Source: Escherichia coli (lineage in GTDB: Bacteria > Pseudomonadota > Gammaproteobacteria > Enterobacterales > Enterobacteriaceae). Taken from it: 64,000 nt of DNA. Below are positions 2,411 through 48,826 of this stretch, in pieces. Location: the NCBI RefSeq assembly GCF_044324785.1, contig NZ_CP172127.1. One strand, 5' to 3'. The position numbers and the translations under genes were made by a program. Numbering within the stretch: position 1 is the first letter of the stretch; each line of letters opens with the position of its first letter. The notes beneath the pieces are model-generated. The model ran no database searches. It saw only the letters and a list, made by a program, of their open reading frames with translations, and had not been told where the DNA came from.

Positions 2411-4066
2411 ATGACTAATCTTCCCCACTGGTGGCAAAACGGCGTTATCTACCAGATTTATCCAAAGAGTTTTCAGGACACCACGGGTAGCGGCACCGGC
2501 GATTTACGTGGCGTTATCCAGCGCCTGGACTATCTGCATAAACTGGGCGTTGATGCCATCTGGCTAACCCCCTTTTATGTCTCTCCCCAGGTCGATAACG
2601 GTTACGACGTAGCGAACTATACGGCGATTGATCCCACCTACGGCACACTGGACGATTTTGACGAACTGGTGACACAGGCAAAATCTCGCGGGATTCGTAT
2701 CATTCTCGATATGGTGTTTAACCATACCTCTACCCAACATGCCTGGTTTCGTGAGGCGCTGAACAAAGCAAGCCCTTACCGCCAGTTTTATATCTGGCGC
2801 GATGGAGAACCAGAAACACCACCGAACAACTGGCGTTCAAAATTTGGCGGTAGCGCGTGGCGCTGGCATGCGGAAAGCGAACAGTACTATTTGCATCTCT
2901 TTGCACCAGAACAGGCGGATCTCAACTGGGAGAATCCAGCGGTACGCGCAGAGCTGAAAAAAGTCTGTGAGTTCTGGGCCGATCGTGGGGTCGACGGGTT
3001 GCGCCTGGATGTGGTGAATCTGATCTCCAAAGACCCGCGTTTCCCTGATGACCTGGATGGCGACGGGCGTCGCTTCTACACCGACGGGCCACGAGCACAC
3101 GAGTTTTTGCACGAGATGAACCGCGATGTGTTTACGCCGCGCGGGTTAATGACCGTAGGTGAAATGTCCTCCACCAGCCTTGAGCATTGCCAGCGATATG
3201 CGGCACTGACAGGCAGTGAATTGTCGATGACCTTTAATTTTCATCACCTGAAAGTCGATTATCCCGGTGGTGAAAAATGGACGCTGGCTAAACCTGACTT
3301 TGTGGCGTTGAAAACATTGTTCCGCCACTGGCAACAAGGAATGCACAACGTGGCATGGAATGCCTTGTTCTGGTGTAACCACGATCAGCCGCGCATTGTT
3401 TCTCGCTTTGGTGATGAAGGTGAATACCGCGTGCCTGCGGCAAAAATGCTGGCGATGGTGCTGCATGGCATGCAGGGAACGCCATATATCTACCAGGGCG
3501 AAGAGATTGGCATGACTAACCCACATTTCACGCGCATTACTGACTATCGCGACGTGGAGAGCCTCAATATGTTTGCCGAGCTGCGCAACGATGGGCGTGA
3601 TGCCGACGAGTTATTGGCAATCCTCGCCAGTAAATCCCGTGACAACAGTCGCACACCCATGCAATGGAGCAACGGCGATAATGCCGGGTTTACGGCTGGC
3701 GAACCGTGGATTGGCCTGGGCGATAACTATCAACAAATCAACGTAGAAGCAGCGCTGGCCGATGAGTCCTCGGTGTTTTACACCTACCAAAAGTTAATCG
3801 CACTGCGTAAGCAAGAAGCCGTCCTGACATGGGGCGATTACCAGGATCTGCTGCCAAACAGCCCTGTATTGTGGTGCTATCGCCGTGAGTGGAAGGGGCA
3901 AACCTTGCTGGTCATTGCCAACCTTAGCCGTGAGACCCAACCCTGGCAGCCAGGGAAAATGCTCGGCAACTGGCAGCTTGTGATGCATAACTACGAAGAA
4001 GCCTCACCACAACCCTGTGCCATGACTTTACGGCCTTTTGAGGCTGTCTGGTGGTTACAGAAGTAA
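2411..4066 (+). CDS. treC: Trehalose-6-phosphate hydrolase (GH13 alpha-glucosidase)
   Basis: 551 aa from internal ATG (MTNLPHWWQNGVIYQIYPKSF...), GH13 motifs (DGLRLDVV, FNHT); longer ORF-track start at 2264 overlaps treB and is rejected. Confidence 0.9.
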   Translation: MTNLPHWWQNGVIYQIYPKSFQDTTGSGTGDLRGVIQRLDYLHKLGVDAIWLTPFYVSPQVDNGYDVANYTAIDPTYGTLDDFDELVTQAKSRGIRIILDMVFNHTSTQHAWFREALNKASPYRQFYIWRDGEPETPPNNWRSKFGGSAWRWHAESEQYYLHLFAPEQADLNWENPAVRAELKKVCEFWADRGVDGLRLDVVNLISKDPRFPDDLDGDGRRFYTDGPRAHEFLHEMNRDVFTPRGLMTVGEMSSTSLEHCQRYAALTGSELSMTFNFHHLKVDYPGGEKWTLAKPDFVALKTLFRHWQQGMHNVAWNALFWCNHDQPRIVSRFGDEGEYRVPAAKMLAMVLHGMQGTPYIYQGEEIGMTNPHFTRITDYRDVESLNMFAELRNDGRDADELLAILASKSRDNSRTPMQWSNGDNAGFTAGEPWIGLGDNYQQINVEAALADESSVFYTYQKLIALRKQEAVLTWGDYQDLLPNSPVLWCYRREWKGQTLLVIANLSRETQPWQPGKMLGNWQLVMHNYEEASPQPCAMTLRPFEAVWWLQK

Positions 4067-6619: not shown

Positions 6620-6746
<127 letters not shown>

Positions 6747-28429: not shown

Positions 28430-29341
28430 TCATACTGGTAACGCTAGTTGCTTTTTTTTAAACGCCTCAATGGTCGATTTATATTTCTCGCAAATCTTTT
28501 CTTCGGTAATATCACTATCTGCGGCCAGATTCGCACTTACTATCGCATCCACTTGTTCGGCTAATTCGACTTGTTGGCAACCTGCATTAACCAGAAAATT
28601 ATAAATAAGAGAGTAATCTTCATCCTCCAAAACAACAGAGGAACCATTACGAAAACGTTCATCCCCTCCATAGATTTTAAGCGCAAAGCCCAAAGATTCT
28701 ATGACTATGGCAAAATTATCATCAATTATTTTTTCGTAAATATACCATCCATCGCATTCTTTAATTCCACCTCCTGGAATTTGGAGGTCAAATTTACCCC
28801 GTTTTAATTTACTTACTATATCATCCAATACAGCATAACCTAAAGACACGTCACCAAACGCCTGGCGAATATAACCTTTAATCCTTTCCGGTATGTCAGA
28901 CTGTTTTTTCTGCAGAATATCCCAGGCATACAATCTTCTGTTTTGTTCTAACGGAAACTCGCGGTTTTTGAAATCCATGAATGAGTTATACTCATTTATT
29001 GTTATGGGAATTTCTTCGTATTCAAATCCACTGCCTCGCAATGTCATTATATATTCGGCACCGTTATCTTTAAGGCTGAAACTGATAAGAAACTTATCCA
29101 TGGCGTTAACAGTTTCATTTTTTGATGAAAGTACCTGATAACTATTTTTATCAATCTGAGTTGCGCAACGAAAGAACTCCCGCAAAGTTAACAGGCTATC
29201 ATAATTCGAAATCCAATCTTTTTTATTAAATGCATGCTGGATATTGTTAAAAAAATTGTTTGAATGTGTTTTTGTATGCGATGATTTTACGAATAACTCC
29301 ACCGCACCAATAAAATTATTGTGTCTGATCCTGGGTAACAT
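28430..29341 (-). CDS. ytfI: Uncharacterised protein YtfI (AT-rich orphan gene)
   Basis: 303 aa, no recognisable motifs, markedly AT-rich relative to flanks; position between ytfJ and cysQ matches ytfI. Confidence 0.7.
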   Translation of the reverse strand: MLPRIRHNNFIGAVELFVKSSHTKTHSNNFFNNIQHAFNKKDWISNYDSLLTLREFFRCATQIDKNSYQVLSSKNETVNAMDKFLISFSLKDNGAEYIMTLRGSGFEYEEIPITINEYNSFMDFKNREFPLEQNRRLYAWDILQKKQSDIPERIKGYIRQAFGDVSLGYAVLDDIVSKLKRGKFDLQIPGGGIKECDGWYIYEKIIDDNFAIVIESLGFALKIYGGDERFRNGSSVVLEDEDYSLIYNFLVNAGCQQVELAEQVDAIVSANLAADSDITEEKICEKYKSTIEAFKKKQLALPV

Positions 29342-38329: not shown

Positions 38330-38968
38330 ATGCCCGGGCGCTTTGAACTAAAACCAACCCTGGAGAAAGTCTGGCACGCGCCGGACAATTTTCGCTTCAT
38401 GGACCCGCTGCCGCCGATGCATCGTCGGGGGATCATTATTGCCGCCATTGTATTGGTGGTCGGATTTCTGCTTCCATCTGATGATACGCCCAACGCGCCG
38501 GTGGTGACGCGTGAAGCGCAGTTAGATATTCAGTCGCAATCACAACCGCCGACAGAAGAACAGCTGCGGGCGCAATTAGTCACCCCACAAAATGATCCTG
38601 ATCAGGTGGCTCCGGTCGCTCCAGAACCTATACAGGAAGGCCAGCCAGAAGAGCAGCCGCAAACCACCCAAACGCAACCATTCCAGCCAGATAGCGGAAT
38701 TGATAATCAATGGCGCTCTTACCGTGTCGAACCCGGTAAAACGATGGCGCAGCTGTTCCGCGACCACGGACTGCCCGCTACCGATGTCTATGCAATGGCG
38801 CAGGTAGAAGGCGCGGGTAAGCCGCTGAGTAATTTGCAAAACGGGCAGATGGTGAAAATCCGCCAGAACGCCAGCGGCGTGGTGACGGGCTTAACCATTG
38901 ATACGGGGAATAATCAACAGGTCCTGTTTACCCGCCAGCCGGATGGCAGTTTTATTCGTGCGCGGTAG
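38330..38968 (+). CDS. ytfB: OapA/LysM-like cell-division-associated protein
   Basis: 212 aa from internal ATG ([23 protein letters not shown]...), membrane anchor, Pro/Gln-rich linker. Confidence 0.8.
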
Positions 38969-39599
38969 ATGAAGGATCAACCAAAAGCCAGCTAAGGAGC
39001 GTCTCTTTGATGACCTTACGTCTGGCTTCCAGTGCCTGGGGGGAAACCATACTGATATGATAAACTAGGCCAAGCGTATGCTGGTTGATCAAATAATATC
39101 CCCCAAGCGCAGCAATATTAATATTCACCTGCAATGGGTCGATATCTGGCTTAAAAATATTGTGTTTCTTCCCTTCATCCAATAAGGATTCCATTAACTG
39201 CAAGTGCGCATGGTTAATTTCTAAGAGACGCTGTGATTTTGCATAATGCACACCTTTACTTTGATTTTCACTATGCACAATTTTTAAAAACCAGGGGTTA
39301 GCAATATAATAATCCCATGTAAAATCAATAATTTTCTCAATGGCTTTTTGTGGCGGAAGATCTGAGAAATCAAGGGCCTTTTCTTTTTGTCGAATATCGT
39401 TCCAGGTATATTCCAGTACTTCAATAAATAAATTTTCTTTATTACCAAAGTGATGATAAACCGTCTGTTTACTACACCCCGCAGCCTTAACAATATTATC
39501 GACCCTGGCCCCTTCATAACCATATTCGGCAAATTCATTAACCGCGCATAACAGCAGCTTTTCCTTCAGGCTCTGTACGTTGCTGGTATCAAGATACAT
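38952..39599 (-). CDS. TetR/AcrR-family transcriptional regulator, divergent from the accessory operon (possibly the intact form of K-12 ytfA)
   Basis: 215 aa from ATG at 39599; N-terminal HTH ([23 protein letters not shown]); 3' end overlaps ytfB by about 17 nt. Confidence 0.8.
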
Positions 39600-39721
39600 A
39601 ACGCTTCCCCACGACCTCTTCAAGACAACTATCTTAACCCGATTAATTAGAAGCTCCAGTAAAAAGGATAAAAACTTGTACTTTCATCAAGTTATCAAAT
39701 GTCCTGTGATCACTATCGCAT

Positions 39722-39743
39722 ATCAACCAACCAGATGGTTGAT
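39722..39743. promoter_or_regulatory. Perfect inverted repeat ATCAACCA-N6-TGGTTGAT in divergent promoter region; candidate operator of the TetR regulator
   Basis: Verified against ORF-track translation of this region; a second repeat CTTGCG-N6-CGCAAG lies at about 39748-39765. Confidence 0.4.
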
Positions 39744-39809
39744 CTTTCTTGCGGCACGTCGCAAGCTAATTGTCACTTAGAAACAATATTCAAAAAAGAG
39801 AGCTATTGT

Positions 39810-40601
39810 ATGAAATCCACTCGTCCTGTTGCCGTGATTACCGGAGCCGCTCGTGGTATTGGAAAGGGCTGTGCGCTGGAGCTTGCTCGTGGCGGATTTA
39901 ACCTGCTGATTAACGATCGCCCCGATGATGACAGCGTAGAAAAATTACATGCCACGCAACAGGAATGTCTGGCAGAAGGTGTGGAAGTGATTTGCTTCCC
40001 TGCCGATGTCGGCGATCTCTCCTTGCATGAAGAGATGCTCGACGCGGCACAAAACCAGTGGGGACGTCTGGACTGCCTGCTCAACAACGCAGGCATTTCA
40101 GTGAAAAAACGCGGTGACCTTCTCGACCTCGAACCAGACAGCTTCGACCAAAATATTGCCATTAACACCCGCGCACCGTTCTTCCTCGCTCAGGCATTCA
40201 GTAAGCGCTTACTGGCACAGCCGAAACCGGAAGCAGAACTGCCGCACCGCTCGATTATTTTTGTCAGTTCCATCAACGCCATCATGCTGGCGATGAATCG
40301 CGGCGAATATACCATTGCCAAAACTGCCGTCTCTGCCGCTGCTCGTCTGTTTGCTGCTCGGCTTTGTAATGAACAAATTGGCGTTTATGAAGTGCGTCCT
40401 GGTCTCATCAAAACCGATATGACTATTCCGGCAACGGCCTATTACGACGAACTGATTGCCAAAGGTCTGGTGCCGTGGGGACGTTGGGGTTATCCGGCTG
40501 ATATTGCTTCCACTGTCCGCGCGATGGCGGAAGGTAAACTGATTTACACCTGTGGTCAGGCGGTTGCCATTGACGGCGGCTTAAGTATGCCGCGTTTCTG
40601 A
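39810..40601 (+). CDS. Short-chain dehydrogenase/reductase (classical SDR, FabG-like)
   Basis: 263 aa; TGAARGIGKG cofactor motif, NNAG, catalytic Y-x3-K (YTIAK); RBS AAAGAGAG upstream. Confidence 0.8.
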   Translation: MKSTRPVAVITGAARGIGKGCALELARGGFNLLINDRPDDDSVEKLHATQQECLAEGVEVICFPADVGDLSLHEEMLDAAQNQWGRLDCLLNNAGISVKKRGDLLDLEPDSFDQNIAINTRAPFFLAQAFSKRLLAQPKPEAELPHRSIIFVSSINAIMLAMNRGEYTIAKTAVSAAARLFAARLCNEQIGVYEVRPGLIKTDMTIPATAYYDELIAKGLVPWGRWGYPADIASTVRAMAEGKLIYTCGQAVAIDGGLSMPRF

Positions 40602-40610
40602 GGCTGAATC

Positions 40611-41453
40611 ATGAGAGATCTGTTACAACGCCCGGATTTATTCAGTATCAATACCGCGACACTGGGCTATAAAACGCCGCTTCCCGCCATTATTGATGCC
40701 TGCGCCGCACGCGGTATTGGCGCAATTGCCCCCTGGCGCAGGGAGTTGCAGGGTGAAGATCTCCAGCAAATCGCCCGCCAGCTTGCCGCCAGTAAGATGA
40801 ACGTTTCCGGTTTGTGCCGTAGCACTTACTACACCGCGCCGACACTGGCGGAACGCAAACTGGCGATTGATGATAACCGCCGGGCGCTGGACGACGCAGC
40901 GGTGCTTAACGCCGCCTGTTATATGCAGGTGGTTGGCGGGTTACCGCAGGGAACAAAAGATTTGTACGAAGCGCGGGAACAAGTAAAACAAGGGATTCGC
41001 CAGTTGCTGCCACATTCGAAAGATGTCGGCGTGCCAATTGCGCTGGAGCCGCTGCACCCGATGACTGCTGCCGACCGCTCTTGCCTGTGCACGTTACGTC
41101 AGGCGCTGGACTGGTGTGATGAACTCGATCCCGATGGTGAGTTTGGCCTCGGCGTAGCGGTAGATGTCTACCATGTCTGGTGGGACCCGGATCTCGCCAG
41201 CCAACTCCAGCGCGCCGGAAAACGCATCCTCGCGTTTCATGTTTCCGACTGGTTAGTACCAACCACCGATCTGGTCAATGACCGTGGAATGCCGGGAGAT
41301 GGCGTCATCAATATTCCGTCAATTCGTCGGCTGGTTGAAAACGCCGGATTTAATGGCGCTATTGAACTGGAAATATTCTCGCCGTACTGGTGGCAAAAAG
41401 ATATTAACAGCACGCTGGATATTAGCGTCGATCGCATCGCGCATTATTGCTAA
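40611..41453 (+). CDS. Xylose-isomerase-like TIM-barrel enzyme (sugar-phosphate isomerase/epimerase or dehydratase superfamily)
   Basis: 280 aa; conserved metal-ligand-like positions (LEPLHP, HVSDW, ELEIFS); starts 9 nt after SDR stop. Confidence 0.75.
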   Translation: MRDLLQRPDLFSINTATLGYKTPLPAIIDACAARGIGAIAPWRRELQGEDLQQIARQLAASKMNVSGLCRSTYYTAPTLAERKLAIDDNRRALDDAAVLNAACYMQVVGGLPQGTKDLYEAREQVKQGIRQLLPHSKDVGVPIALEPLHPMTAADRSCLCTLRQALDWCDELDPDGEFGLGVAVDVYHVWWDPDLASQLQRAGKRILAFHVSDWLVPTTDLVNDRGMPGDGVINIPSIRRLVENAGFNGAIELEIFSPYWWQKDINSTLDISVDRIAHYC

Positions 41454-41462
41454 GGAATGATT

Positions 41463-42239
41463 ATGAGTGACCAACCCGTTCTGTTCAGCAGAGCGGCGGC
41501 TTCCTGCCGTCTGACATTGAACCGTGAAGATAAATGTCATGCTATTAATGAAGAGATGATTGAATCTCTCGATCATTATTTAAATGAAATTGAAAACGAC
41601 ACCACATTACGATTAGTCGAATTAACGGCAACCGGCGATAAATTCTTTTGTGCGGGCGGCGATATTAAATCGTGGTCAGCCTATTCGCCATTAGATATGG
41701 GCAGAAAATGGATTAAACGCGGTAATGACGTTTTTAATCGCCTGCGCAACTTACCCCAATTAACCGTTGCAAATCTCAACGGTCATACCATCGGCGGTGG
41801 TATTGAACTTGCTTTGTGCTGCGATATTCGTATTGCCCGTCCCGGCGCGAAATTCTCTAACCCGGAAGTGATGCTCGGCATGGTGCCTGGCTGGATGGGC
41901 ATTGAACGTGTGCTTAATCAGGTCGGTCCGGTGGTCGGTCGCCAGATGCTGATGCTGGGTAAACGCCTGACGGCGCGGGAAGCTCAGGCGGCGAATTTAA
42001 TTGATGAAGTGGTAGAAAAAGAACAGGTGGAAAGCTGGATGGCGAACCAGTTAGCGCAGCTGGAAAAATGTGGTCCGGTGGCGCTCGCACATATCAAGCA
42101 ACTGATTCTGGCACTGGAAAATAAACATGCCGATTACCCGCACCAGCTACTGGCTGGATTAATGTCCGCCACTCAGGATTGCCAGCAGGCGACGCGCGCG
42201 TTTGCCGAAAAAAGTAGCGTGAGCTTCCACAATCAATAA
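41463..42239 (+). CDS. Enoyl-CoA hydratase/isomerase (crotonase fold)
   Basis: 258 aa; oxyanion-hole segments FCAGGDIKSW and NGHTIGGGIELALCCDIRIA; start taken at second ATG, 6 nt after AAGGA. Confidence 0.8.
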   Translation: MSDQPVLFSRAAASCRLTLNREDKCHAINEEMIESLDHYLNEIENDTTLRLVELTATGDKFFCAGGDIKSWSAYSPLDMGRKWIKRGNDVFNRLRNLPQLTVANLNGHTIGGGIELALCCDIRIARPGAKFSNPEVMLGMVPGWMGIERVLNQVGPVVGRQMLMLGKRLTAREAQAANLIDEVVEKEQVESWMANQLAQLEKCGPVALAHIKQLILALENKHADYPHQLLAGLMSATQDCQQATRAFAEKSSVSFHNQ

Positions 42240-42248
42240 GGAAATTGT

Positions 42249-43790
42249 ATGCGTAAGATAACAACCGCCGAGGCACTGGCGGCGCAAATTCAGGACGGCG
42301 CAACCATTGCCATTAGCGGTAACGGCGGCGGCATGGTGGAAGCTGACCATATTATGGCCGCCATTGAAGCGCGTTTCCTGCAAACCGGACACCCTCGCGA
42401 TCTGACATTGATCCACTCGCTGGGTATTGGCGATCGCGACAGCAAAGGCACTAACCGTTTTGCTCACGCCGAAATGCTCAAACGCATTATTGCCGGACAT
42501 TTTACCTGGTCGCCCAAGATGCAGGAACTGGTGAAAAGCAATGCTATTGAAGCCTACTGTTTCCCTGGTGGCGTGATTCAGGCGTTGCTACGGGAGATCG
42601 GTGCCGGACGTCCGGGGCTTTTTACCCACGTTGGGCTGGGATCGTTTGTTGATCCACGCAATGGCGGCGGTAAGTCGAATGAATGCACTACCGACGACCT
42701 GGTAGAACTGATTGAAATCGACGGTGAGACCAAACTTCGTTATCGCCCTTTCAAAGTGGATTACGCGATTTTGCGTGGCACTTATGCCGATCCACGAGGC
42801 AACGTTAGCCTCGAAGAAGAAGCGATTGATATGGATAGCTATTCGATGGCGCTGGCAGCACACAACAGCGGTGGCAAAGTGTTCGTACAGGTACGCGATG
42901 TGCTGGAAGCAGGTGCCATTGAACCACGCCGGGTTAAATTACCGGGGATTCTGGTTGATGGCATCGTTGAACACCGCGAACAGCCACAAACCTATCTTGG
43001 CAGTTACGACCTGACCATCAGCGGCCAACATCGCCGTCTGAGTTCTAACGACGCTATTGAGCTGGTTAGTCATCCGGTGCGTCGCCTGATTGCCCGTCGG
43101 GCAGCGCGGGAACTGGTGGCAGGCGCTTCAACCAACTTTGGCTTTGGTATTCCCGGCGGCATTCCAGGAGTAGCGCTGCGCGAAGGCGTGCCTTACCAAA
43201 GTTTATGGCTGAGCGTCGAGCAAGGCGTGCATAACGGTATGATGCTGGATGATGCGTTTTTCGGCTGCGCCCGCAACGCCGATGCCATTATTCCATCACT
43301 CGATCAATTTGAGTTCTACAGTGGTGGAGGGATCGATATCACCTTCCTCGGCATGGGAGAGATGGATCAGTACGGTAACGTCAACGTATCCCATCTCAAT
43401 GGCAATCTGATTGGCCCCGGCGGATTTCTCGAAATTGCGCAAAATGCCCGTAAAGTGGTGTTCTGCGGCACGTTCGACGCTAAAGGCAGCAAAATCGATA
43501 TAACGCCAGATGGCTTGCATATCGCCCAGTCAGGTCAAATCCCTAAACTGGTTACCCAGGTGGAAAAAATCACTTTTAGCGCCGCCTACGCACAGCAAAG
43601 TGGTCAGGAAGTGTTGTATATCACTGAGCGCGCAGTATTCCAGTTAACGGCAGAAGGCGTTGAATTAATTGAAATCGCGCCGGGTGTAGAGATTGAGCGC
43701 GACATTCTGCCGTTCATGGCTTTCCGTCCAATTATCAAGCACCCACGCCTGATGGAAAGTAGCCTGTTTACGCCGATGGAGGATGCATGA
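42249..43790 (+). CDS. Family-I CoA-transferase, fused alpha/beta subunits (YdiF / propionate-CoA-transferase-like)
   Basis: 513 aa; N-terminal ISGNGGG and later SGGGIDITFLGMGEMDQYGNVNVS segments typical of 3-oxoacid CoA-transferases. Confidence 0.75.
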   Translation: MRKITTAEALAAQIQDGATIAISGNGGGMVEADHIMAAIEARFLQTGHPRDLTLIHSLGIGDRDSKGTNRFAHAEMLKRIIAGHFTWSPKMQELVKSNAIEAYCFPGGVIQALLREIGAGRPGLFTHVGLGSFVDPRNGGGKSNECTTDDLVELIEIDGETKLRYRPFKVDYAILRGTYADPRGNVSLEEEAIDMDSYSMALAAHNSGGKVFVQVRDVLEAGAIEPRRVKLPGILVDGIVEHREQPQTYLGSYDLTISGQHRRLSSNDAIELVSHPVRRLIARRAARELVAGASTNFGFGIPGGIPGVALREGVPYQSLWLSVEQGVHNGMMLDDAFFGCARNADAIIPSLDQFEFYSGGGIDITFLGMGEMDQYGNVNVSHLNGNLIGPGGFLEIAQNARKVVFCGTFDAKGSKIDITPDGLHIAQSGQIPKLVTQVEKITFSAAYAQQSGQEVLYITERAVFQLTAEGVELIEIAPGVEIERDILPFMAFRPIIKHPRLMESSLFTPMEDA

Positions 43791-45859
43791 GTCAGCTTGA
43801 TGACACCATCCTTGATGCGCTGACGCACGTCACTTTCCCAAAGGGGTTTGTGTCAGCAGAGCCAACGTCAATTGTCACCGTTGAGGATGTTGATTACCCG
43901 ATCTGGCAAGTTGATGCGCTGGTCGTTGGTAGCGGCGCAGCAGGATTACGTGCGGCAGTTGAACTTAAACGCCGCCAGCAAAATGTGCTGATCGCCACCG
44001 CCGGGTTATATATGGGGACGTCGGCATGTTCTGGTTCCGATAAACAGACGTTGTTTACCGCCGCTACCGCGGGCAACGGCGACAACTTCGCCAAACTGGC
44101 AGAGGCACTTGCGAGCGGTGGGGCGATGGATCACGACACCGCTTATGTCGAAGCGGTAGGTTCTCTGCACACTCTTGGCGGGTTGCAATATCTTGGTCTG
44201 GAATTACCGGAAGATCGCTATGGCGCGATTCTTCGTTATCAAACCGACCATGACGAAGCCGGGCGTGCAACCTCGTGTGGGCCGCGTACCTCAAGGTTAA
44301 TGGTGAAAGTGCTGCTGGAAGAAGTACAGCGTCTTGCTATCCCAATGTTGACCAGTGCAACAGTGATTAAACTGCTGCATCAGCGTGACGAAAACGGCGA
44401 AGACCGCGTGGCGGGGGCTATCCTCGCGACCGGTCATCGCGCCCATAACCCATGGGGGCTGGCAATTGTGATTGCGCCCAATGTGGTACTGGCAACAGGA
44501 GGGCCTGGCGAGCTTTATCGCGACAGTGTGTACCCACACAAATGTTTCGGCTCGCTGGGTCTGGCGCTGGAGGAAGGTCTGACGCTAACGAATCTGACTG
44601 AAAGCCAGTTTGGTATAGGCACACCGCGCAGCACGTTTCCGTGGAATTTGTCCGGGACTTATGTACAGGTGATCCCATATATCTATTCCGTGGATGCTGA
44701 GGGTAACGAGTATAACTTCCTCGCGGATTACTATCGCACCACCCAGGAGCTGGCTTCAAACATTTTCCGTAAAGGCTATCAGTGGCCGTTCCACGCCACT
44801 CGGGTGATGGATTTTGGCTCCAGCTTGTTAGATATGGCAGTAGCGCAAGAGCAGCAATCAGGGCGTCAGGTATTTATGGATTTCAATCGCAATCCTGAAG
44901 CGGTGCCGGGTGACCTGCCCTTCTCATTAGATCGACTGGACGACGACGTTCGCGCGTATCTGGAAAATAACGACGCTCTGGCACCATCGCCCATCGAACG
45001 GCTGCAACGAATGAATCCGCTGTCTATCTCGCTGTATAAGATGCACGGTTACGATCTCACCACACAGCCATTGCAGTTTGCCATGAATAATCAGCATATG
45101 AATGGCGGCATTGAAGTCGATATCTGGGGACAAACATCTCTACCCGGTTGTTTTGCAGTGGGGGAAGTTGCTGGCACACACGGCGTCACCCGACCTGGCG
45201 GCGCGGCATTGAATGCCGGGCAGGTTTTTGCTGTTCGTCTGGCACGTTTTATTGGTTGCACGCAAAAGCGGAATATTGATGGAGATATAGCACAGCTGGC
45301 AGCTCCGGCACTGGCTTCTATAAGAGAGATCATTACTCAGGCGCACGATAACGGGACCGGGATGCCGTTGTCGGTTGTGAGAGAAAAAATTCAGGCACGA
45401 ATGTCTGACCATGCGGGATTTATTTGTCATGCCGATAAAGTCCGACGCGCCACTCGTGATGCCCTGCTATTGAACGAATTTGTCCAACGGCATGGATTGG
45501 CAATCAAACATGTGGGTGAAGTTTCCGAGCTGTTTATGTGGCGGCATATGGCGCTGACTTCTGCCGCGGTATTAACACAATTAACGCATTATATTGATGC
45601 TGGTGGCGGCAGTCGTGGGGCGCGGATGGTTATTGATCCACAAGGCAAATGCCTACCACAAACTCGTCGCGGCGTAAAAGAAGAATGGCGTTTTCGCTCT
45701 GAACTCGCTGAAGATAAAAATCACAAATTAACAATTCAATATTCGCAAGGTTCTTTTATTACCGAAGTAAAGTCTTTACGTATGCAACCGTGTATTAACG
45801 GTATTTACTTTGAAAAAAACTGGCCAGACTTTTTAAAGGGAGACATTTACACACAATAA
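43787..45859 (+). CDS. FAD-binding oxidoreductase of the fumarate-reductase/succinate-dehydrogenase flavoprotein superfamily
   Basis: 690 aa; dinucleotide fold VVGSGAAGLRAA, later GEVAGTHGVTRPGGAALNAGQVFAVRLARF; ATGA overlap with upstream gene. Confidence 0.75.
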   Translation: MSQLDDTILDALTHVTFPKGFVSAEPTSIVTVEDVDYPIWQVDALVVGSGAAGLRAAVELKRRQQNVLIATAGLYMGTSACSGSDKQTLFTAATAGNGDNFAKLAEALASGGAMDHDTAYVEAVGSLHTLGGLQYLGLELPEDRYGAILRYQTDHDEAGRATSCGPRTSRLMVKVLLEEVQRLAIPMLTSATVIKLLHQRDENGEDRVAGAILATGHRAHNPWGLAIVIAPNVVLATGGPGELYRDSVYPHKCFGSLGLALEEGLTLTNLTESQFGIGTPRSTFPWNLSGTYVQVIPYIYSVDAEGNEYNFLADYYRTTQELASNIFRKGYQWPFHATRVMDFGSSLLDMAVAQEQQSGRQVFMDFNRNPEAVPGDLPFSLDRLDDDVRAYLENNDALAPSPIERLQRMNPLSISLYKMHGYDLTTQPLQFAMNNQHMNGGIEVDIWGQTSLPGCFAVGEVAGTHGVTRPGGAALNAGQVFAVRLARFIGCTQKRNIDGDIAQLAAPALASIREIITQAHDNGTGMPLSVVREKIQARMSDHAGFICHADKVRRATRDALLLNEFVQRHGLAIKHVGEVSELFMWRHMALTSAAVLTQLTHYIDAGGGSRGARMVIDPQGKCLPQTRRGVKEEWRFRSELAEDKNHKLTIQYSQGSFITEVKSLRMQPCINGIYFEKNWPDFLKGDIYTQ

Positions 45860-45951
45860 TTTTCAATATTTCCTCTGTACCTGATTTTTATTGCCTATTA
45901 CATGGAAATACCAACAACCAGGGTTTATTAATATAATTAAAAGGTTTAAAA

Positions 45952-47229
45952 ATGAATAAAATAAAGAATTATCGATGGCATATGATTGCCCTCGTATGCT
46001 TTATCACTGTAATCAATTATCTGGACAGAACGGCGTTAGGTATTGCGGCTCCAACGATTATGGAGACAACCGGAATAACTAAAGAGCAATATTCATGGAT
46101 TGTCAGTGCATTCCAGTTGGCCTATACATTAGGGCAACCGGTAATGGGCTTCTTTATTGATACCGTGGGTCTGAAGTTAAGTTTTGCGATATGTGCCGCA
46201 ATTTGGGGCCTGGCGACAATGGGCCATGCACTAACCGGAACGTGGTCTGGTCTGGCATTTATGCGCGCCCTGATGGGTTTCAGCGAAGCGTCGGCAATTC
46301 CGGCGGGTGTAAAAACCGCATCAACATGGTTCCCGGCAAAAGAGCGTGGCGTGGCGACAGGTGTTTTCAATATGGGCACCTCACTCGGCGCGATGCTTGC
46401 TCCACCGTTGATTGCCTGGTGCATTATGTTTCATAGCTGGCAATTTGCGTTTATTGTTTCAGGTAGCCTTGCTTTGCTCGCGGCTTTATTTTGGTTCTTT
46501 TGTTATAAAGATCCGAAAGATGCCAAACGCCTTTCTGATGAAGAGCGCCACTATATTGAATCAGGGCAAGAACAGCATCTTAAAACAGATAAGAAAGAAA
46601 AAACGTCAATCAAGCATATCCTCAGCCAACGTAATTTCTGGGGGATTGGCATCGCGCGTTTTCTCGCAGACCCGGCATGGGGAACCATTAACTTCTGGGT
46701 GCCGATTTTCTTCGTCGAAACGCTGCATTTTAGCCTGAAAGAAATTGCCATGTTCGTCTGGCTGCCTTTCCTGCTGGGCGATCTCGGCTGTTTAGCCAGT
46801 GGTTTTGTCGCGAAGTTCTTCCACGATCGCGGCGTGAGTTTAATTAACTCACGAAGAATTACCTTCACTATTGCAGCCGTCATTATGATGACGATTGGCC
46901 TGGTGAGTATTGTCGAAAATCCCTACATTGCCGTATTACTGATTAGTATTGGCGCGTTCTCGCATCAATGTCTTTCTACTGTAGCAGCAACTCTGGGTGG
47001 CGATCTGTTCAAAAAAGACGAAGTAGCTACCGCAGTGGGTATGGCAGGAGCCTGTGCGTGGAGCGGTCAGTTGATTTTCAACCTGTTCATCGGGGCATTC
47101 GTTCACATTATCGGCTTCGCGCCGTTCTTTATTGCCCTGGCTTTCTTTGACATTATTGGTGCTATTGCGTTGTGGACGCTTATCAAAGTTAAAGATGAAG
47201 AACCGCAAGTACAGCTAGCTACCCATTAA
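45952..47229 (+). CDS. MFS transporter, anion:cation symporter (ACS) family, ExuT/DgoT-like
   Basis: 425 aa; N-terminus NYRWHMIALVCFITVINYLDRTALGIAAPTIME and FPAKERG loop resemble hexuronate/aldonate transporters. Confidence 0.85.
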   Translation: MNKIKNYRWHMIALVCFITVINYLDRTALGIAAPTIMETTGITKEQYSWIVSAFQLAYTLGQPVMGFFIDTVGLKLSFAICAAIWGLATMGHALTGTWSGLAFMRALMGFSEASAIPAGVKTASTWFPAKERGVATGVFNMGTSLGAMLAPPLIAWCIMFHSWQFAFIVSGSLALLAALFWFFCYKDPKDAKRLSDEERHYIESGQEQHLKTDKKEKTSIKHILSQRNFWGIGIARFLADPAWGTINFWVPIFFVETLHFSLKEIAMFVWLPFLLGDLGCLASGFVAKFFHDRGVSLINSRRITFTIAAVIMMTIGLVSIVENPYIAVLLISIGAFSHQCLSTVAATLGGDLFKKDEVATAVGMAGACAWSGQLIFNLFIGAFVHIIGFAPFFIALAFFDIIGAIALWTLIKVKDEEPQVQLATH

Positions 47230-47242
47230 TTATTTTAAATAA

Positions 47243-47272
47243 AAACGCTATAATTGAGGTTATGGCGTTTTT
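47243..47272 (+). terminator. Probable rho-independent terminator after the MFS transporter gene
   Basis: AAACGCTATAA...TTATGGCGTTT stem (one G-U pair) followed by T-run. Confidence 0.4.
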
Positions 47273-47499
47273 AAAGAAGCTTGAGTTATCGAACCTCGCT
47301 TACCAACGCGTTGTCAATCATATCCCCCCTCCCTGCTGCATCGTTATATCCACAATGAGCGATTTTTGATATTAATATCTTTCACCATCCGCTATTTTCA
47401 CTACTTCAGAAAACAAACTTATTTTTATTAATATCGATTCTTTATTCTGTAAACATTCAGCTGAGATATTTATAAAAACATTAAACAGGCAACGATACA

Positions 47500-48294
47500 A
47501 TGACATTACCAACCACTATTTATTCATTTCCTGCATATTCACCCCGTTTTTCGTCCACCGACAAACCAGTAAAATTAAAATTTCATCAATACGCACGCGC
47601 TACATTACTTTCAAATCGTGGAAGAGATCATAATTGCGATGGCAGACATACTGTTGAGATCCACAAACTAGATCTCTCAGACTGGCAAGCATTCAATAAA
47701 CTAGCGATGGCGTGTAATGCTTACGATGGAATAACAATGAATGGTGATAATTCTTTTGGATGGAACCATGAAGCTACATTAGATAATATTCACGCCCAGA
47801 AATACAATAAAGCTTACGCGGGTGCGAGGTTAACCGCAGAACTGAAATATTTATTGCAAGATGTCGAATCCTTCGAACCCAACAGTAAATACACAATACA
47901 CGAGGTTGTTTTGGGTCCAGGTTATGGTACTCCAGACTATACCGGCCAAACGATAGGATACGTTGTAACCCTTCCTGCCCAAATGCCTAATTGCTGGTCA
48001 TCTGAACTACCAACAATCGATCTTTATATCGACCAACTTCGCACTGTTACAGGCGTTTCTAATGCCCTCGGATTCATCATTGCTGCATTGCTAAACGCGT
48101 ATTCTGATTTACCCCATGATTTGAAAATTGGTCTGCGTTCCTTATCAAGTTCAGCAGCAATCTACTCGGGTTTGGGTTTCGAGCGAGTGCCGCAGGGCCG
48201 AGACATAAGGTGCGATCATATGCATCTAACGCCAGCAAACCATCCTGAATTATGGACACAAGAGAATGGTGAATGGATCTACTTGCGAAACTAA
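47500..48294 (+). CDS. yjfZ: Uncharacterised DUF2686-like protein YjfZ (AT-rich gene)
   Basis: 264 aa, no motifs recognised, preceded by 270-bp AT-rich spacer; position next to rplI matches yjfZ. Confidence 0.7.
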   Translation: MTLPTTIYSFPAYSPRFSSTDKPVKLKFHQYARATLLSNRGRDHNCDGRHTVEIHKLDLSDWQAFNKLAMACNAYDGITMNGDNSFGWNHEATLDNIHAQKYNKAYAGARLTAELKYLLQDVESFEPNSKYTIHEVVLGPGYGTPDYTGQTIGYVVTLPAQMPNCWSSELPTIDLYIDQLRTVTGVSNALGFIIAALLNAYSDLPHDLKIGLRSLSSSAAIYSGLGFERVPQGRDIRCDHMHLTPANHPELWTQENGEWIYLRN

Positions 48295-48317
48295 TACCTG
48301 ACGAAAAATAGAAAGCA

Positions 48318-48345
48318 AAACGCCGACCACTGGTCGGCGTTTTTA
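48318..48345. terminator. Bidirectional terminator between yjfZ and rplI
   Basis: ACGCCGACC-ACTG-GTCGGCGT followed by TTTT. Confidence 0.55.
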
Positions 48346-48364
48346 CGTCTCGTTGAATAACGAA

Positions 48365-48826
<462 letters not shown>

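Follow-up and report, generated by a model that had tools for sequence, protein, structure and literature searches.

Does the uneven base composition of a metabolic gene block in Escherichia coli record foreign DNA, and if so, in which of its parts? The block lies between ytfB and rplI in a window of 64,000 nt (the whole stretch of DNA analysed, overall GC 0.513). It would form the 3' two-thirds of an operon in the order tetR | SDR, TIM-barrel, crotonase, CoA-transferase, SdhA/FrdA-like flavoprotein and transporter (Table 1). A first-pass annotation, made by eye, had judged the SDR and CoA-transferase genes host-like, and the first part of the crotonase gene, the 3' end of the flavoprotein gene, the MFS gene and its downstream spacer A+T-rich with frequent TTA, AGA and ATA codons. 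It had suggested either an older foreign acquisition, partly ameliorated, or assembly from segments of different origin.

Table 1. Features of the operon and its surroundings, in positions of the window (strand left empty where none applies).
Feature	Position	Strand	Remarks
tetR, TetR-family regulator, 215 aa	38952..39599	-	Pfam TetR_N + TetR_C_29; annotation in strain N3; GC 0.40
Perfect palindrome ATCAACCAACCAGATGGTTGAT	39722..39743		tetR-SDR divergent intergenic region
SDR oxidoreductase, 263 aa	39810..40601	+	Pfam adh_short; NCBIfam PRK12745; GC 0.53, host-like
Xylose-isomerase-like TIM-barrel gene ("sugar phosphate isomerase/epimerase"), 280 aa	40611..41453	+	Pfam AP_endonuc_2; GC 0.553
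Conserved A+T-rich patch over TIM/crotonase junction	41370..41640	+	Peak synonymous-site conservation of the operon
Crotonase/enoyl-CoA hydratase gene (ECH), 258 aa	41463..42239	+	Pfam ECH_1
Fused family-I CoA-transferase, YdiF/FadX-like, 513 aa	42249..43790	+	Pfam CoA_trans; GC 0.53, host-like
Flavoprotein (FAD), conserved FAD-binding + capping part, codons 1-470	43787..45196	+	Pfam FAD_binding_2, residues 43-475
Flavoprotein, C-terminal helical + beta domain, codons 471-690	45197..45859	+	Hypervariable, low codon adaptation
Segment replaced in TRAP-form E. coli	45592..48311		Flavoprotein tail, spacer, MFS, terminator, spacer, yjfZ; 2720 nt, GC 0.428
Flavoprotein-MFS spacer, 92 nt	45860..45951		GC 0.26
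MFS transporter "MFS-A", anion:cation symporter type, 425 aa	45952..47229	+	Pfam MFS_1, TIGR00893; GC 0.469
Hairpin, then T-run, after MFS stop (putative terminator)	47240..47273	+	Inverted repeat I25, 14-nt arms, 93% complementary
A+T-rich spacer + yjfZ (47500-48294, GC 0.42)	47274..48311	+	Separate presence/absence unit

The tetR and ytfB genes overlap by 17 nt at their 3' ends. The palindrome occurs as a single exact copy in the 64-kb stretch, and its core (CAACCAACyAGATGGTTGAT) is invariant in seven loci of five genera, the remaining tetR-SDR spacer being about 49% identical; it is probably a TetR operator. The layout is that of a TetR-repressed divergent operon (HTH and ligand domains, divergent transcription and a palindrome in the spacer), and TetR control of the operon is predicted. 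All gene junctions upstream of the flavoprotein-MFS spacer are 9 nt long or overlapping, as at the 4-nt overlap (ATGA) of the CoA-transferase end with the flavoprotein start. The CoA-transferase scored 385 bits against the NCBIfam FadX-like model, which is below its cut-off.

As a baseline, 868 windows of 100 codons from 39 core genes of the same stretch were used (GC mean 0.541, sd 0.030, minimum 0.450; summed TTA, AGA and ATA count with a mean of 0.9 and a maximum of 7). In 300-nt windows, GC dips to 0.41-0.42 at 41350-41800, 0.30-0.42 at 45550-46150 and 0.33-0.34 at 47200-47650, and is 0.50-0.58 in the SDR, TIM-barrel and CoA-transferase genes. The 100-codon windows of these three genes fall between the 7th and 92nd GC percentiles of the core windows (19-54 for SDR), in agreement with the host-like character given to two of them, and flavoprotein codons 1-450 also have core-gene composition. 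The GC of three other windows is lower than in every core window: the first 100 codons of the crotonase gene (41463-41762; GC 0.427, GC3 0.41), the last 100 of the flavoprotein gene (45557-45856; GC 0.410, GC3 0.30) and the first 100 of the MFS gene (GC 0.44). The frequent TTA, AGA and ATA codons were confirmed too, with nine in the crotonase window, more than in any core window, and seven in the MFS window. Within the crotonase gene, GC is 0.44 up to about codon 120 and a host-like 0.54 in the rest. Neither sliding-window GC nor the codon-adaptation index was uniform across the block, the latter lying at the 0-2.5 percentile of the core windows from 44987 onward in the flavoprotein gene. The A+T-richness ascribed to the MFS gene holds for its first 100 codons, but over the whole gene it is only moderate and patchy (bins 0.37-0.57; 0.443 at 46402-46701), while the spacer downstream, between MFS and yjfZ, is A+T-rich as described (GC 0.326). 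The lowest-GC gene of the module is tetR, which lies outside the block first annotated.

The dips mostly reflect synonymous codon choice rather than amino-acid content: the GC shortfall divides into synonymous and amino-acid effects of -0.086 and -0.012 in crotonase codons 1-120, and of -0.101 and -0.029 in flavoprotein codons 601-690. The A+T-rich last 35 or so codons of the TIM-barrel gene, whose low-GC 3' bin is also kept in Brenneria and P. vulneris relatives, owe theirs chiefly to amino acids (-0.069 vs. -0.021 for synonymous choice in codons 246-280). This tail would suit a reading of the whole pattern as within-gene noise or an amino-acid by-product devoid of evolutionary meaning, as would a flavoprotein tail rich in Lys, Asn, Ile, Phe and Tyr in all relatives and the mostly intergenic position of the other low-GC segments of the window. 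The core-window and codon-decomposition results largely refute that reading, and the 3' dip moreover coincides with a mapped replacement junction (see below), which leaves it very improbable.

The ytfB-rplI site is occupied by the module in Klebsiella, Salmonella, Citrobacter, E. marmotae and E. albertii as well, and K. oxytoca, Salmonella, E. marmotae, C. tructae and Klebsiella sp. share the gene order and the 17-nt ytfB/tetR overlap. Compared with Klebsiella and Salmonella, the module enzymes have 0.87-0.94 amino-acid and 0.50-0.60 third-position identity, and the flanking ytfE, cycA and fklB 0.89-0.96 and 0.57-0.63; by this measure, the enzymes are as diverged as flanking core genes. In K-12, homology to tetR, about 99% identical up to there, ends at 39354. 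The K-12 pseudogene ytfA corresponds to the 3' part of the module's tetR, and an SDR relic of about 100 decayed nt remains as well; gone are the 5' part that encodes the HTH, the promoter and the whole operon. Judged from this alignment, ytfA is a remnant of that tetR and the lack of the module in K-12 a deletion. The operon would thus already have been at this site before the split of Escherichia, Salmonella, Klebsiella and Citrobacter, and would have been deleted frequently. A recent genomic island was rejected as an explanation, given the core-range GC of much of the insert, the presence in sister genera and the absence of mobility signatures: there are no tRNA genes at 30000-56000, no flanking repeats were found at the module, and there are no mobility genes, every ORF being metabolic, regulatory or transport. 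IS609 turned up solely in genomes with the module already deleted. At greater depth, the crotonase-CoA-transferase pair resembles an insertion into an SDR-TIM-flavoprotein core, which favors the suggested assembly from segments of different origin.

The older acquisition proposed at first would be a single horizontal transfer in which a low-GC donor supplied the whole module, with the A+T-rich patches as parts lagging in amelioration. It would account for the slightly negative synonymous GC residuals of all module genes against core genes (-0.014 to -0.10), for an enzyme GC3 that follows each host (0.50-0.59 in E. coli, 0.63-0.66 in Klebsiella), and for the closest relative lacking the crotonase-CoA-transferase pair, in Brenneria, being A+T-rich throughout (0.40-0.43). 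However, GC changes in sharp steps inside the crotonase (codon ~120) and flavoprotein genes (codons ~450 and ~600), and amelioration acts on all synonymous sites alike and therefore cannot leave such steps. The same GC relief, with patches at the same positions, recurs in every genus compared. Synteny at one site in four genera, divergence equal to that of the flanking core genes and the K-12 deletion also speak against it, as do the coincidence of the 3' patches with demonstrated allelic replacement and a synonymous conservation of the crotonase patch that is higher, not lower (both below). As stated, the acquisition is unsupported, and we regard it as improbable.

The 3' third of the operon is variable in content. 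Across genera, the slot after the flavoprotein gene holds MFS-A, MFS-B or a TRAP transporter (DctQMP), all A+T-rich; in a Klebsiella locus, TRAP genes of GC 0.40-0.48 adjoin enzymes at 0.57-0.58. MFS-A is only 50-51% identical to the MFS-B of K. oxytoca and Salmonella in the same slot, compared with about 90% for the neighboring enzymes; it is 80-85% identical to MFS genes adjoining uxaC/uxuB/uxuA in Providencia and Gilliamella, and 47% to K-12 ExuT. One Salmonella lineage has a MaoC hydratase and no crotonase. Among 5426 complete E. coli genomes, the crotonase and CoA-transferase genes were found in 3141, the MFS gene in 1692 and TRAP in 1446, so that the MFS form of the window makes up 31%, the TRAP form 27% and the deletion 42% of what is a sampling-biased collection of sequenced genomes.

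Junctions were located by sliding identity and pairwise substitution rates. Identity to the TRAP form falls from 95 to 60% at 45592, the megablast matches of about 27% of the genomes end at query position 6720 (45619 in the window), and homology resumes at 48312. By these profiles, the flavoprotein gene itself contains the MFS/TRAP junction, close to 45592 and coincident with the fall in GC. The alternative segment of strain ST540, a tail with DctQ/M/P, measures 3199 nt (GC 0.437). The hairpin behind the MFS gene is likely a terminator and the right edge of the MFS cassette; homology to Nissle 1917 stops exactly at 47273. In Nissle, hipBA-like genes take the place of the spacer and yjfZ beyond this hairpin; ST540 and E. 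marmotae lack the unit, and K-12 keeps it.

The flavoprotein itself is split by this variation. Its codons 1-470 share 87-89% amino-acid identity with the Klebsiella, Salmonella and Citrobacter orthologues at a dN/dS of 0.03-0.05, whereas codons 471-690 share 51-65% between genera and 69-85% between differing E. coli alleles at a dN/dS of 0.14-0.22, which shows relaxed constraint on the C-terminal domain. This domain holds a recombination block X (~45200-45590) and a tail (45592-45859), the variable blocks being flanked by the conserved motifs ...RLAR[FY] and GGGSRGAR. Local dS in codons 471-690 reaches 0.95 between the window and N3, 2.4 between the window and ST540, and 1.5-2.3 between K. 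oxytoca and Klebsiella sp. (values above ~1 are saturated and approximate), compared with 0.1-0.8 next to the divergent blocks. Overall, the divergence of the swapped parts is discordant with that of their neighbors, with amino-acid identities of 50-65% vs. 87-94% and dS of 0.95-2.4 vs. 0.1-0.8. Nevertheless, the flavoprotein 3' end is A+T-rich in every form (last bin 26-40% GC) and also in distant relatives (26% in Brenneria; 56% vs. 64-70% in P. vulneris), and is therefore in part a property of the protein family itself and to that extent no sign of exchange.

The tail is linked to transporter type in E. coli, but only weakly across genera (52% for TRAP-TRAP vs. 48% for TRAP-MFS). The two E. 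coli 3' ends, each transporter with its own last ~90 flavoprotein residues (GC 0.41 in the window) and at comparable frequency, might represent a balanced polymorphism, each tail being co-adapted to its uptake system or substrate and the MFS and TRAP forms taking up different acids for use, and the TIM/crotonase patch might separately be an undescribed intra-operon regulatory element; we hold this extended scenario to be improbable.

The A+T-rich start of the crotonase gene calls for a different explanation. The dip is found in all genera compared, and over 41370-41640 third-position pairwise identity is 0.72-0.85 compared with an operon mean of 0.57, with long invariant runs across five genera. 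The crotonase 5' patch has 90-96% amino-acid identity across genera and a dN/dS of 0.03; its dS is raised in no clean comparison and is lower in four unsaturated pairs (window-E. marmotae, window-C. tructae, K. oxytoca-Klebsiella sp. and Salmonella-K. oxytoca). A junction of differently derived DNA was thus rejected here in every lineage sampled. The patch is rather an old conserved feature under strong constraint, synonymous sites included, and the constraint is probably caused by a function at the nucleotide level. A search of the patch revealed no conserved antisense ORF.

Such conservation raises the question of whether selection maintains all the A+T-rich patches as DNA or RNA elements that act in cis, be it for nucleating the H-NS-type silencing of a seldom needed operon, as internal promoters (e.g., for the transporter) or for tuning crotonase translation. 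H-NS prefers A+T-rich DNA, and the patches, with GC of 0.26-0.44 in a stretch of 0.513, have the A+T-richness of a candidate H-NS tract. They keep their place in all genera despite near-saturated synonymous divergence, nowhere in the operon are synonymous sites better conserved than at 41370-41640, and a weak promoter-like match (45832-45860, 9/12) precedes the MFS gene together with its A+T-rich spacer. On the other hand, there is no plus-strand promoter-like site at 41350-41800, promoter-like sites are fewer in the region than in shuffles (8 vs. 13.5), the TIM/crotonase patch has neither compensatory base pairs nor an Rfam match, and the flavoprotein-MFS spacer is conserved within Escherichia only. 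Selection for cis-acting elements is thus possible but unlikely as the general explanation.

The most probable explanation, in our opinion, is an old and often-deleted operon with enzyme genes passed on as part of the chromosome, an A+T-rich, recombining transporter slot and a separate conserved crotonase patch. The slot would begin near codon 470 of the flavoprotein gene and reach as far as the rplI terminator, and within it the A+T-rich cassettes MFS-A, MFS-B and TRAP, with diverged flavoprotein C-termini, would have replaced one another. We infer homologous recombination as the mechanism, with possible left-hand anchors behind ...RLAR[FY] and behind GGGSRGAR and a right-hand one at the rplI terminator; the transporter cassettes may be of low-GC origin. 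Weaker purifying selection would act on the slot as well, and its A+T-richness and poor codon adaptation would result from both. Of the proposed assembly from segments of different origin, the 3' third (flavoprotein C-terminal region, transporter and spacer) therefore stands, as swappable cassettes with an intragenic junction, and the crotonase dip does not.

The locus illustrates that composition alone misleads both ways, since A+T-rich DNA may be vertically inherited (tetR, crotonase 5' end) and a dispensable module may consist of host-like DNA. In E. coli, three states of the locus are documented (MFS form, TRAP form and deletion scar). About 58% of sequenced E. coli, Nissle 1917 among them, have the operon, and its alternative anion importers offer a handle for finding the substrate. 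Current views of operon evolution stand, and evolution of this sort is ordinary for bacterial gene clusters.

A survey of synteny among Escherichia genomes listed CFT073 c5298-c5303 as an uncharacterized colinear set of six genes for "3-ketoacid metabolism," found in UPEC and many other, but not all, E. coli (PMC2831201). Tag range, gene count and label make it very probable that this set and the present module are one; the survey gives presence and absence alone, and nothing on composition, the MFS/TRAP alternative, the K-12 scar or synteny across genera.

The flavoprotein resembles the SdhA/FrdA/NadB type in its FAD_binding_2 match (E 1.5e-27) and its fold over the full length. Its AlphaFold2 model is confident (pLDDT 87, pTM 0.91), and the top Foldseek matches are SdhA/FrdA chains (~670-700 alignment columns, E ~1e-28; TM-scores 0.61-0.79, depending on normalization), so that domain and predicted four-domain fold point to an SdhA/FrdA-type protein. 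It differs from the solved members in being 13-19% identical to them, in its 690-aa length and in its hypervariable C-terminal domain, and the operon has no gene for an iron-sulfur partner (Fer2/Fer4-type) or membrane anchor.

Lawrence and Ochman are said to have modeled the amelioration of horizontally acquired genes. Like ameliorating genes, the module enzymes have a GC3 near but slightly under that of the host core, and the Klebsiella TRAP genes are far under their host; unlike them, the module is as old at its site as the genera, and that model predicts neither intragenic steps nor a conserved crotonase patch.

Mosaic operons, reportedly described by Omelchenko et al. in Genome Biology in 2003, are said to arise via horizontal transfer and in situ gene displacement. 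The present operon shares with them a conserved frame with one slot for non-orthologous or distant genes (MFS-A, MFS-B and TRAP), a hydratase that is either a crotonase or a MaoC protein, and a divergence discordant with neighbors. It departs from that concept in that the alternatives are common within one species and that the left junction is intragenic, part of an enzyme being swapped along with the transporter.

The base composition of the module is uneven, as the first-pass annotation had noticed by eye for 41463-47229. The GC content in 300-nt windows fell to 0.41-0.42 at 41350-41800, 0.30-0.42 at 45550-46150 and 0.33-0.34 at 47200-47650, and ranged from 0.50 to 0.58 in the SDR, TIM-barrel and CoA-transferase genes. 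A null local to the window, not genome-wide, was drawn from its 39 core genes (868 windows of 100 codons; mean GC 0.541, minimum 0.450; mean of 0.9 and maximum of 7 TTA, AGA and ATA codons). Codons 1-100 of the crotonase gene (GC 0.427, nine such codons), the final 100 codons of the flavoprotein gene (GC 0.410, GC3 0.30) and codons 1-100 of the MFS gene (GC 0.44) fell outside this entire distribution, and the codon-adaptation index of the flavoprotein gene from 44987 onward lay in its 0-2.5 percentile. Windows of the SDR, TIM-barrel and CoA-transferase genes occupied the 7th-92nd percentile, which bears out the host-like GC claimed for the SDR and CoA-transferase genes. When each GC deviation was split into synonymous and amino-acid components, these were -0.086 and -0.012 for crotonase codons 1-120 and -0.101 and -0.029 for flavoprotein codons 601-690. 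The dips are chiefly synonymous, the TIM-barrel tail being the sole one that stems mainly from amino-acid content. Chance or amino-acid content as the source of the pattern is excluded, as it is contradicted by the core-gene null and by this split. Within the module, tetR has the lowest GC of all genes (0.40); it lies just beyond the region first singled out. Two orphan-like genes with strongly negative synonymous GC residuals, ytfI (28430-29341, GC 0.36; no Pfam match) and yjfZ (47500-48294, GC 0.42; the uninformative DUF2686), are compositionally more aberrant than any module gene.

The window spans the E. coli chromosome from treR to the ula operon and is colinear with strain N3, to which the block is 97.8% identical. 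The module comprises seven genes between ytfB and yjfZ/rplI; junctions from the SDR through the flavoprotein gene are 9-nt gaps or a 4-nt overlap, and the MFS gene lies behind a 92-nt spacer. In a few E. coli records the CoA-transferase and flavoprotein are fused into proteins of 1043-1078 aa (P0006 and P0029), which is plausible given the ATGA overlap at 43787-43790; these could alternatively be frameshift or annotation artefacts. A promoter and terminator scan of 38900-48400 found promoter-like sites to be rarer than in shuffles; its one useful yield was the hairpins of the MFS and rplI terminators.

Features of the module and its left neighbour (window positions)
Feature	Position	Remark
ytfB	38330-38968	left neighbour of the module
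tetR	38952-39599	minus strand
SDR gene	39810-40601	
Xylose-isomerase-like TIM-barrel gene	40611-41453	
Crotonase gene	41463-42239	
Fused family-I CoA-transferase gene	42249-43790	
FAD_binding_2 flavoprotein gene	43787-45859	690 aa
MFS transporter gene	45952-47229	anion:cation-symporter type
Hairpin terminator	47240-47273	after the MFS gene

The spacer between tetR and the SDR gene holds a perfect 22-nt palindrome, ATCAACCAACCAGATGGTTGAT (39722-39743), whose core is unchanged in seven loci of five genera within an otherwise poorly conserved spacer and which is likely the TetR operator. A search for a second operator within the A+T-rich patches returned best matches with three mismatches, a chance level. 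The longest SDR reading frame begins at 39699, and every annotated orthologue begins at the ATG corresponding to 39810; the extension (39699-39809), which would cross the operator region, is unlikely to be translated.

The ytfB-rplI interval has the same gene order in K. oxytoca, Salmonella enterica, E. marmotae, Citrobacter tructae and Klebsiella sp., and in all five loci ytfB and tetR overlap tail to tail by 17 nt. The enzyme gene order recurs in E. albertii, for which the comparison covers the enzyme genes up to the end of the contig within the flavoprotein gene. When E. coli is compared with Klebsiella or Salmonella, amino-acid identity of the regulator and enzymes is 87-94% and their third-position identity at conserved codons 0.50-0.60; the corresponding values for the flanking ytfE, cycA and fklB are 89-96% and 0.57-0.63. 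Neither a tRNA gene, a flanking repeat nor a mobility gene was found at the module. The proposal of an older, partly ameliorated foreign acquisition is not supported in that form, since the module is syntenic across genera and as diverged as the flanking core genes; moreover, pure amelioration cannot account for the pattern because it yields no intragenic steps. Rather than a newcomer that has partly ameliorated, the module is a long-established resident of this site that has often been deleted.

In K-12, the 3' part of tetR is kept up to window position 39354 as the annotated pseudogene ytfA, the ytfA-yjfZ interval (3088-3194 of the K-12 locus, L003) contains a relic of the SDR gene of about 100 nt (79% identical; window 39896-39995), and homology restarts at about 47325, within the spacer after the MFS gene, so that the scar is two-part. 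These remnants and the restart point show that the K-12 state was derived by deletion from the form with MFS and yjfZ. Many module-less E. coli (H39-H54), O157:H7 strains included, carry the IS200/IS605-family element IS609 (tnpA and tnpB) inside the scar, where it divides the tetR remnant into two.

Among 5426 complete E. coli genomes, 3141 possess the crotonase and CoA-transferase genes; the window's MFS gene is present in 1692, a DctQ/DctM/DctP TRAP transporter takes its place in 1446, and the remaining genomes have the scar, in which an IS200/IS605-type element is often present, these frequencies mirroring what has been sequenced. Megablast matches to TRAP-form genomes end at about 45619. 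Against ST540, a TRAP-form E. coli, identity in 100-nt steps drops from 95% to 60% at 45592, after the invariant motif GGGSRGAR in the protein, and is regained at 48312, just inside the rplI terminator. The exchanged segments measure 2.7 kb (GC 0.428) in the MFS form versus 3.2 kb (GC 0.437) in the TRAP form. A further independent unit is yjfZ, missing from ST540 and E. marmotae and replaced in Nissle 1917 by hipBA-like genes, homology stopping there exactly at the MFS terminator. The Nissle segment between this terminator and rplI (locus L005, 11475-13238) contains a hipA-like toxin gene with a frameshift, together with an HTH gene. At the CoA-transferase/flavoprotein overlap, 200 nt (43792-43991) that are 77-83% identical to ST540 and Nissle and 99-100% to N3 form another diverged allelic block; between genera, too, the N-terminal part of the flavoprotein is least conserved in residues 1-50.

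From the SDR through flavoprotein codon 470, amino-acid identity across genera is about 87-95%; it is 51-65% in the C-terminal 220 residues of the flavoprotein, with dN/dS (Nei-Gojobori) of 0.14-0.22 in codons 471-690 versus 0.03-0.05 upstream. The dS between the window and N3 reaches 0.95 in codons 471-600 (neighbours 0.14), that between the window and ST540 2.4 in codons 601-690 (neighbours 0.1-0.2), and that between K. oxytoca and Klebsiella sp. locally 1.5-2.3 (neighbours 0.5-0.8), values above 1 being saturated. Relaxed constraint alone does not produce such local dS, which points to deeply diverged alleles moved by recombination; from sliding identity and pairwise rates, the C-terminal blocks appear to be recombined deep alleles under weaker purifying selection. 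The AlphaFold2 model of the flavoprotein (pLDDT 87, pTM 0.91) is SdhA/FrdA-like along its full length, and the variable region corresponds to its confidently folded C-terminal helical and beta part; searched alone, the 220 residues had no Pfam match, and the fold search identified the region as the SdhA/FrdA-type C-terminal part. The operon encodes no iron-sulfur partner for the flavoprotein, which might explain the weaker constraint.

As for the transporter, the MFS protein of K. oxytoca and Salmonella (MFS-B) is 50% identical to that of the window (MFS-A), and both MFS and TRAP forms occur in Klebsiella and in Escherichia. C. tructae has a 90% identical MFS-A, yet its flavoprotein C-terminus is just 54% identical. 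Co-transfer of the flavoprotein tail with transporter type across genera was rejected, the association being weak (52% vs 48%). All cassettes of this slot are A+T-rich, the TRAP genes having a GC of 0.40-0.48 even in a Klebsiella locus with enzymes at 0.57-0.58. In every form, as in distant relatives, the flavoprotein gene has an A+T-rich last bin, so part of its 3' dip is intrinsic to the family. Overall, the 3' third reads as an A+T-rich cassette slot that recombines and is under relaxed constraint. MFS genes beside uxaC/uxuB/uxuA in Providencia (L012, 5481-11296) and Gilliamella (L013, 4767-11260) are 80-85% identical to MFS-A (81-82% pairwise, 83-85% by local BLASTP), and their uxa/uxu neighbours hint that MFS-A may carry a hexuronate-like sugar acid. 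Edwardsiella, Yersinia rohdei and Pantoea have relatives of MFS-A that are about as close. It is not a copy of E. coli exuT, K-12 ExuT being merely 47% identical.

The 5' part of the crotonase gene shows 90-96% amino-acid identity between genera and a dN/dS of 0.03, and its identity matrix agrees with that of the CoA-transferase. No clean comparison gives a raised dS for this part, and in the four unsaturated pairs (window-E. marmotae, window-C. tructae, K. oxytoca-Klebsiella sp. and Salmonella-K. oxytoca) its dS is below that of its neighbours. The GC dip is present in every genus compared, the first 300 nt having 41-44% in E. coli (53-55% in the rest of the gene), 48-52% in K. oxytoca (57-61%) and 46-52% in Salmonella (49-59%). 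Moreover, 41370-41640, across the TIM-barrel/crotonase junction, is the operon's peak of synonymous-site conservation (0.72-0.85 vs a mean of 0.57), with long invariant runs. Taken together, these observations show a conserved, A+T-rich patch that is vertically inherited and constrained, and not a seam between foreign segments. Assembly from differently derived segments is supported for the 3' third and not for the crotonase patch. The patches may have a cis-regulatory or H-NS role, compatible with this explanation. RNA structure was rejected for 41370-41640 (39 RNAalifold pairs, zero compensatory changes), as was an overlapping antisense gene (41319-41576), interrupted by stop codons in other genera. 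The patch had no plus-strand promoter-like site and no Rfam family at E<=1, the sole match being at chance level near rplI.

Assembly from parts finds support at greater depth. Flavoprotein relatives, found in Brenneria, Pseudescherichia, Phytobacter, Rhizobium, Rhodobacteraceae, Planctomycetota and Lentisphaerota, among others, adjoin SDR and TIM-barrel homologues in Enterobacterales and several other phyla; many Rhizobium and Rhodobacteraceae loci have no such neighbours. Crotonase and CoA-transferase are absent from both Brenneria (tetR, then SDR-TIM-FAD-MFS) and Pseudescherichia (tetR, then SDR-Gfo/Idh/MocA-TIM-MFS-FAD), and a CoA-transferase with a hydratase (crotonase or MaoC) lies near the flavoprotein in a few distant genomes, arranged otherwise. 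One Salmonella lineage (S. enterica SRR5711988; L009, 6540-13004) has the CoA-transferase and no crotonase, and its MFS gene is followed by one for a MaoC-type hydratase; its module is divergent (75-80% nucleotide identity, GC 0.36-0.51), with an A+T-rich 77-nt spacer between TIM-barrel and CoA-transferase genes. From the Brenneria, Pseudescherichia and distant layouts, the enterobacterial operon looks like an SDR-TIM-flavoprotein core into which crotonase and CoA-transferase were inserted before these genera split. Such an insertion would leave the GC step within the crotonase gene unexplained.

Searching the literature by gene name, locus tag and gene content returned no functional study, only a 2010 synteny survey in which CFT073 c5298-c5303 is listed, uncharacterised, under '3-ketoacid metabolism' (PMC2831201), and a TetR census that records variable presence of ytfA among E. 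coli (PMC6790063). The case adds one more example of mosaic-operon evolution.
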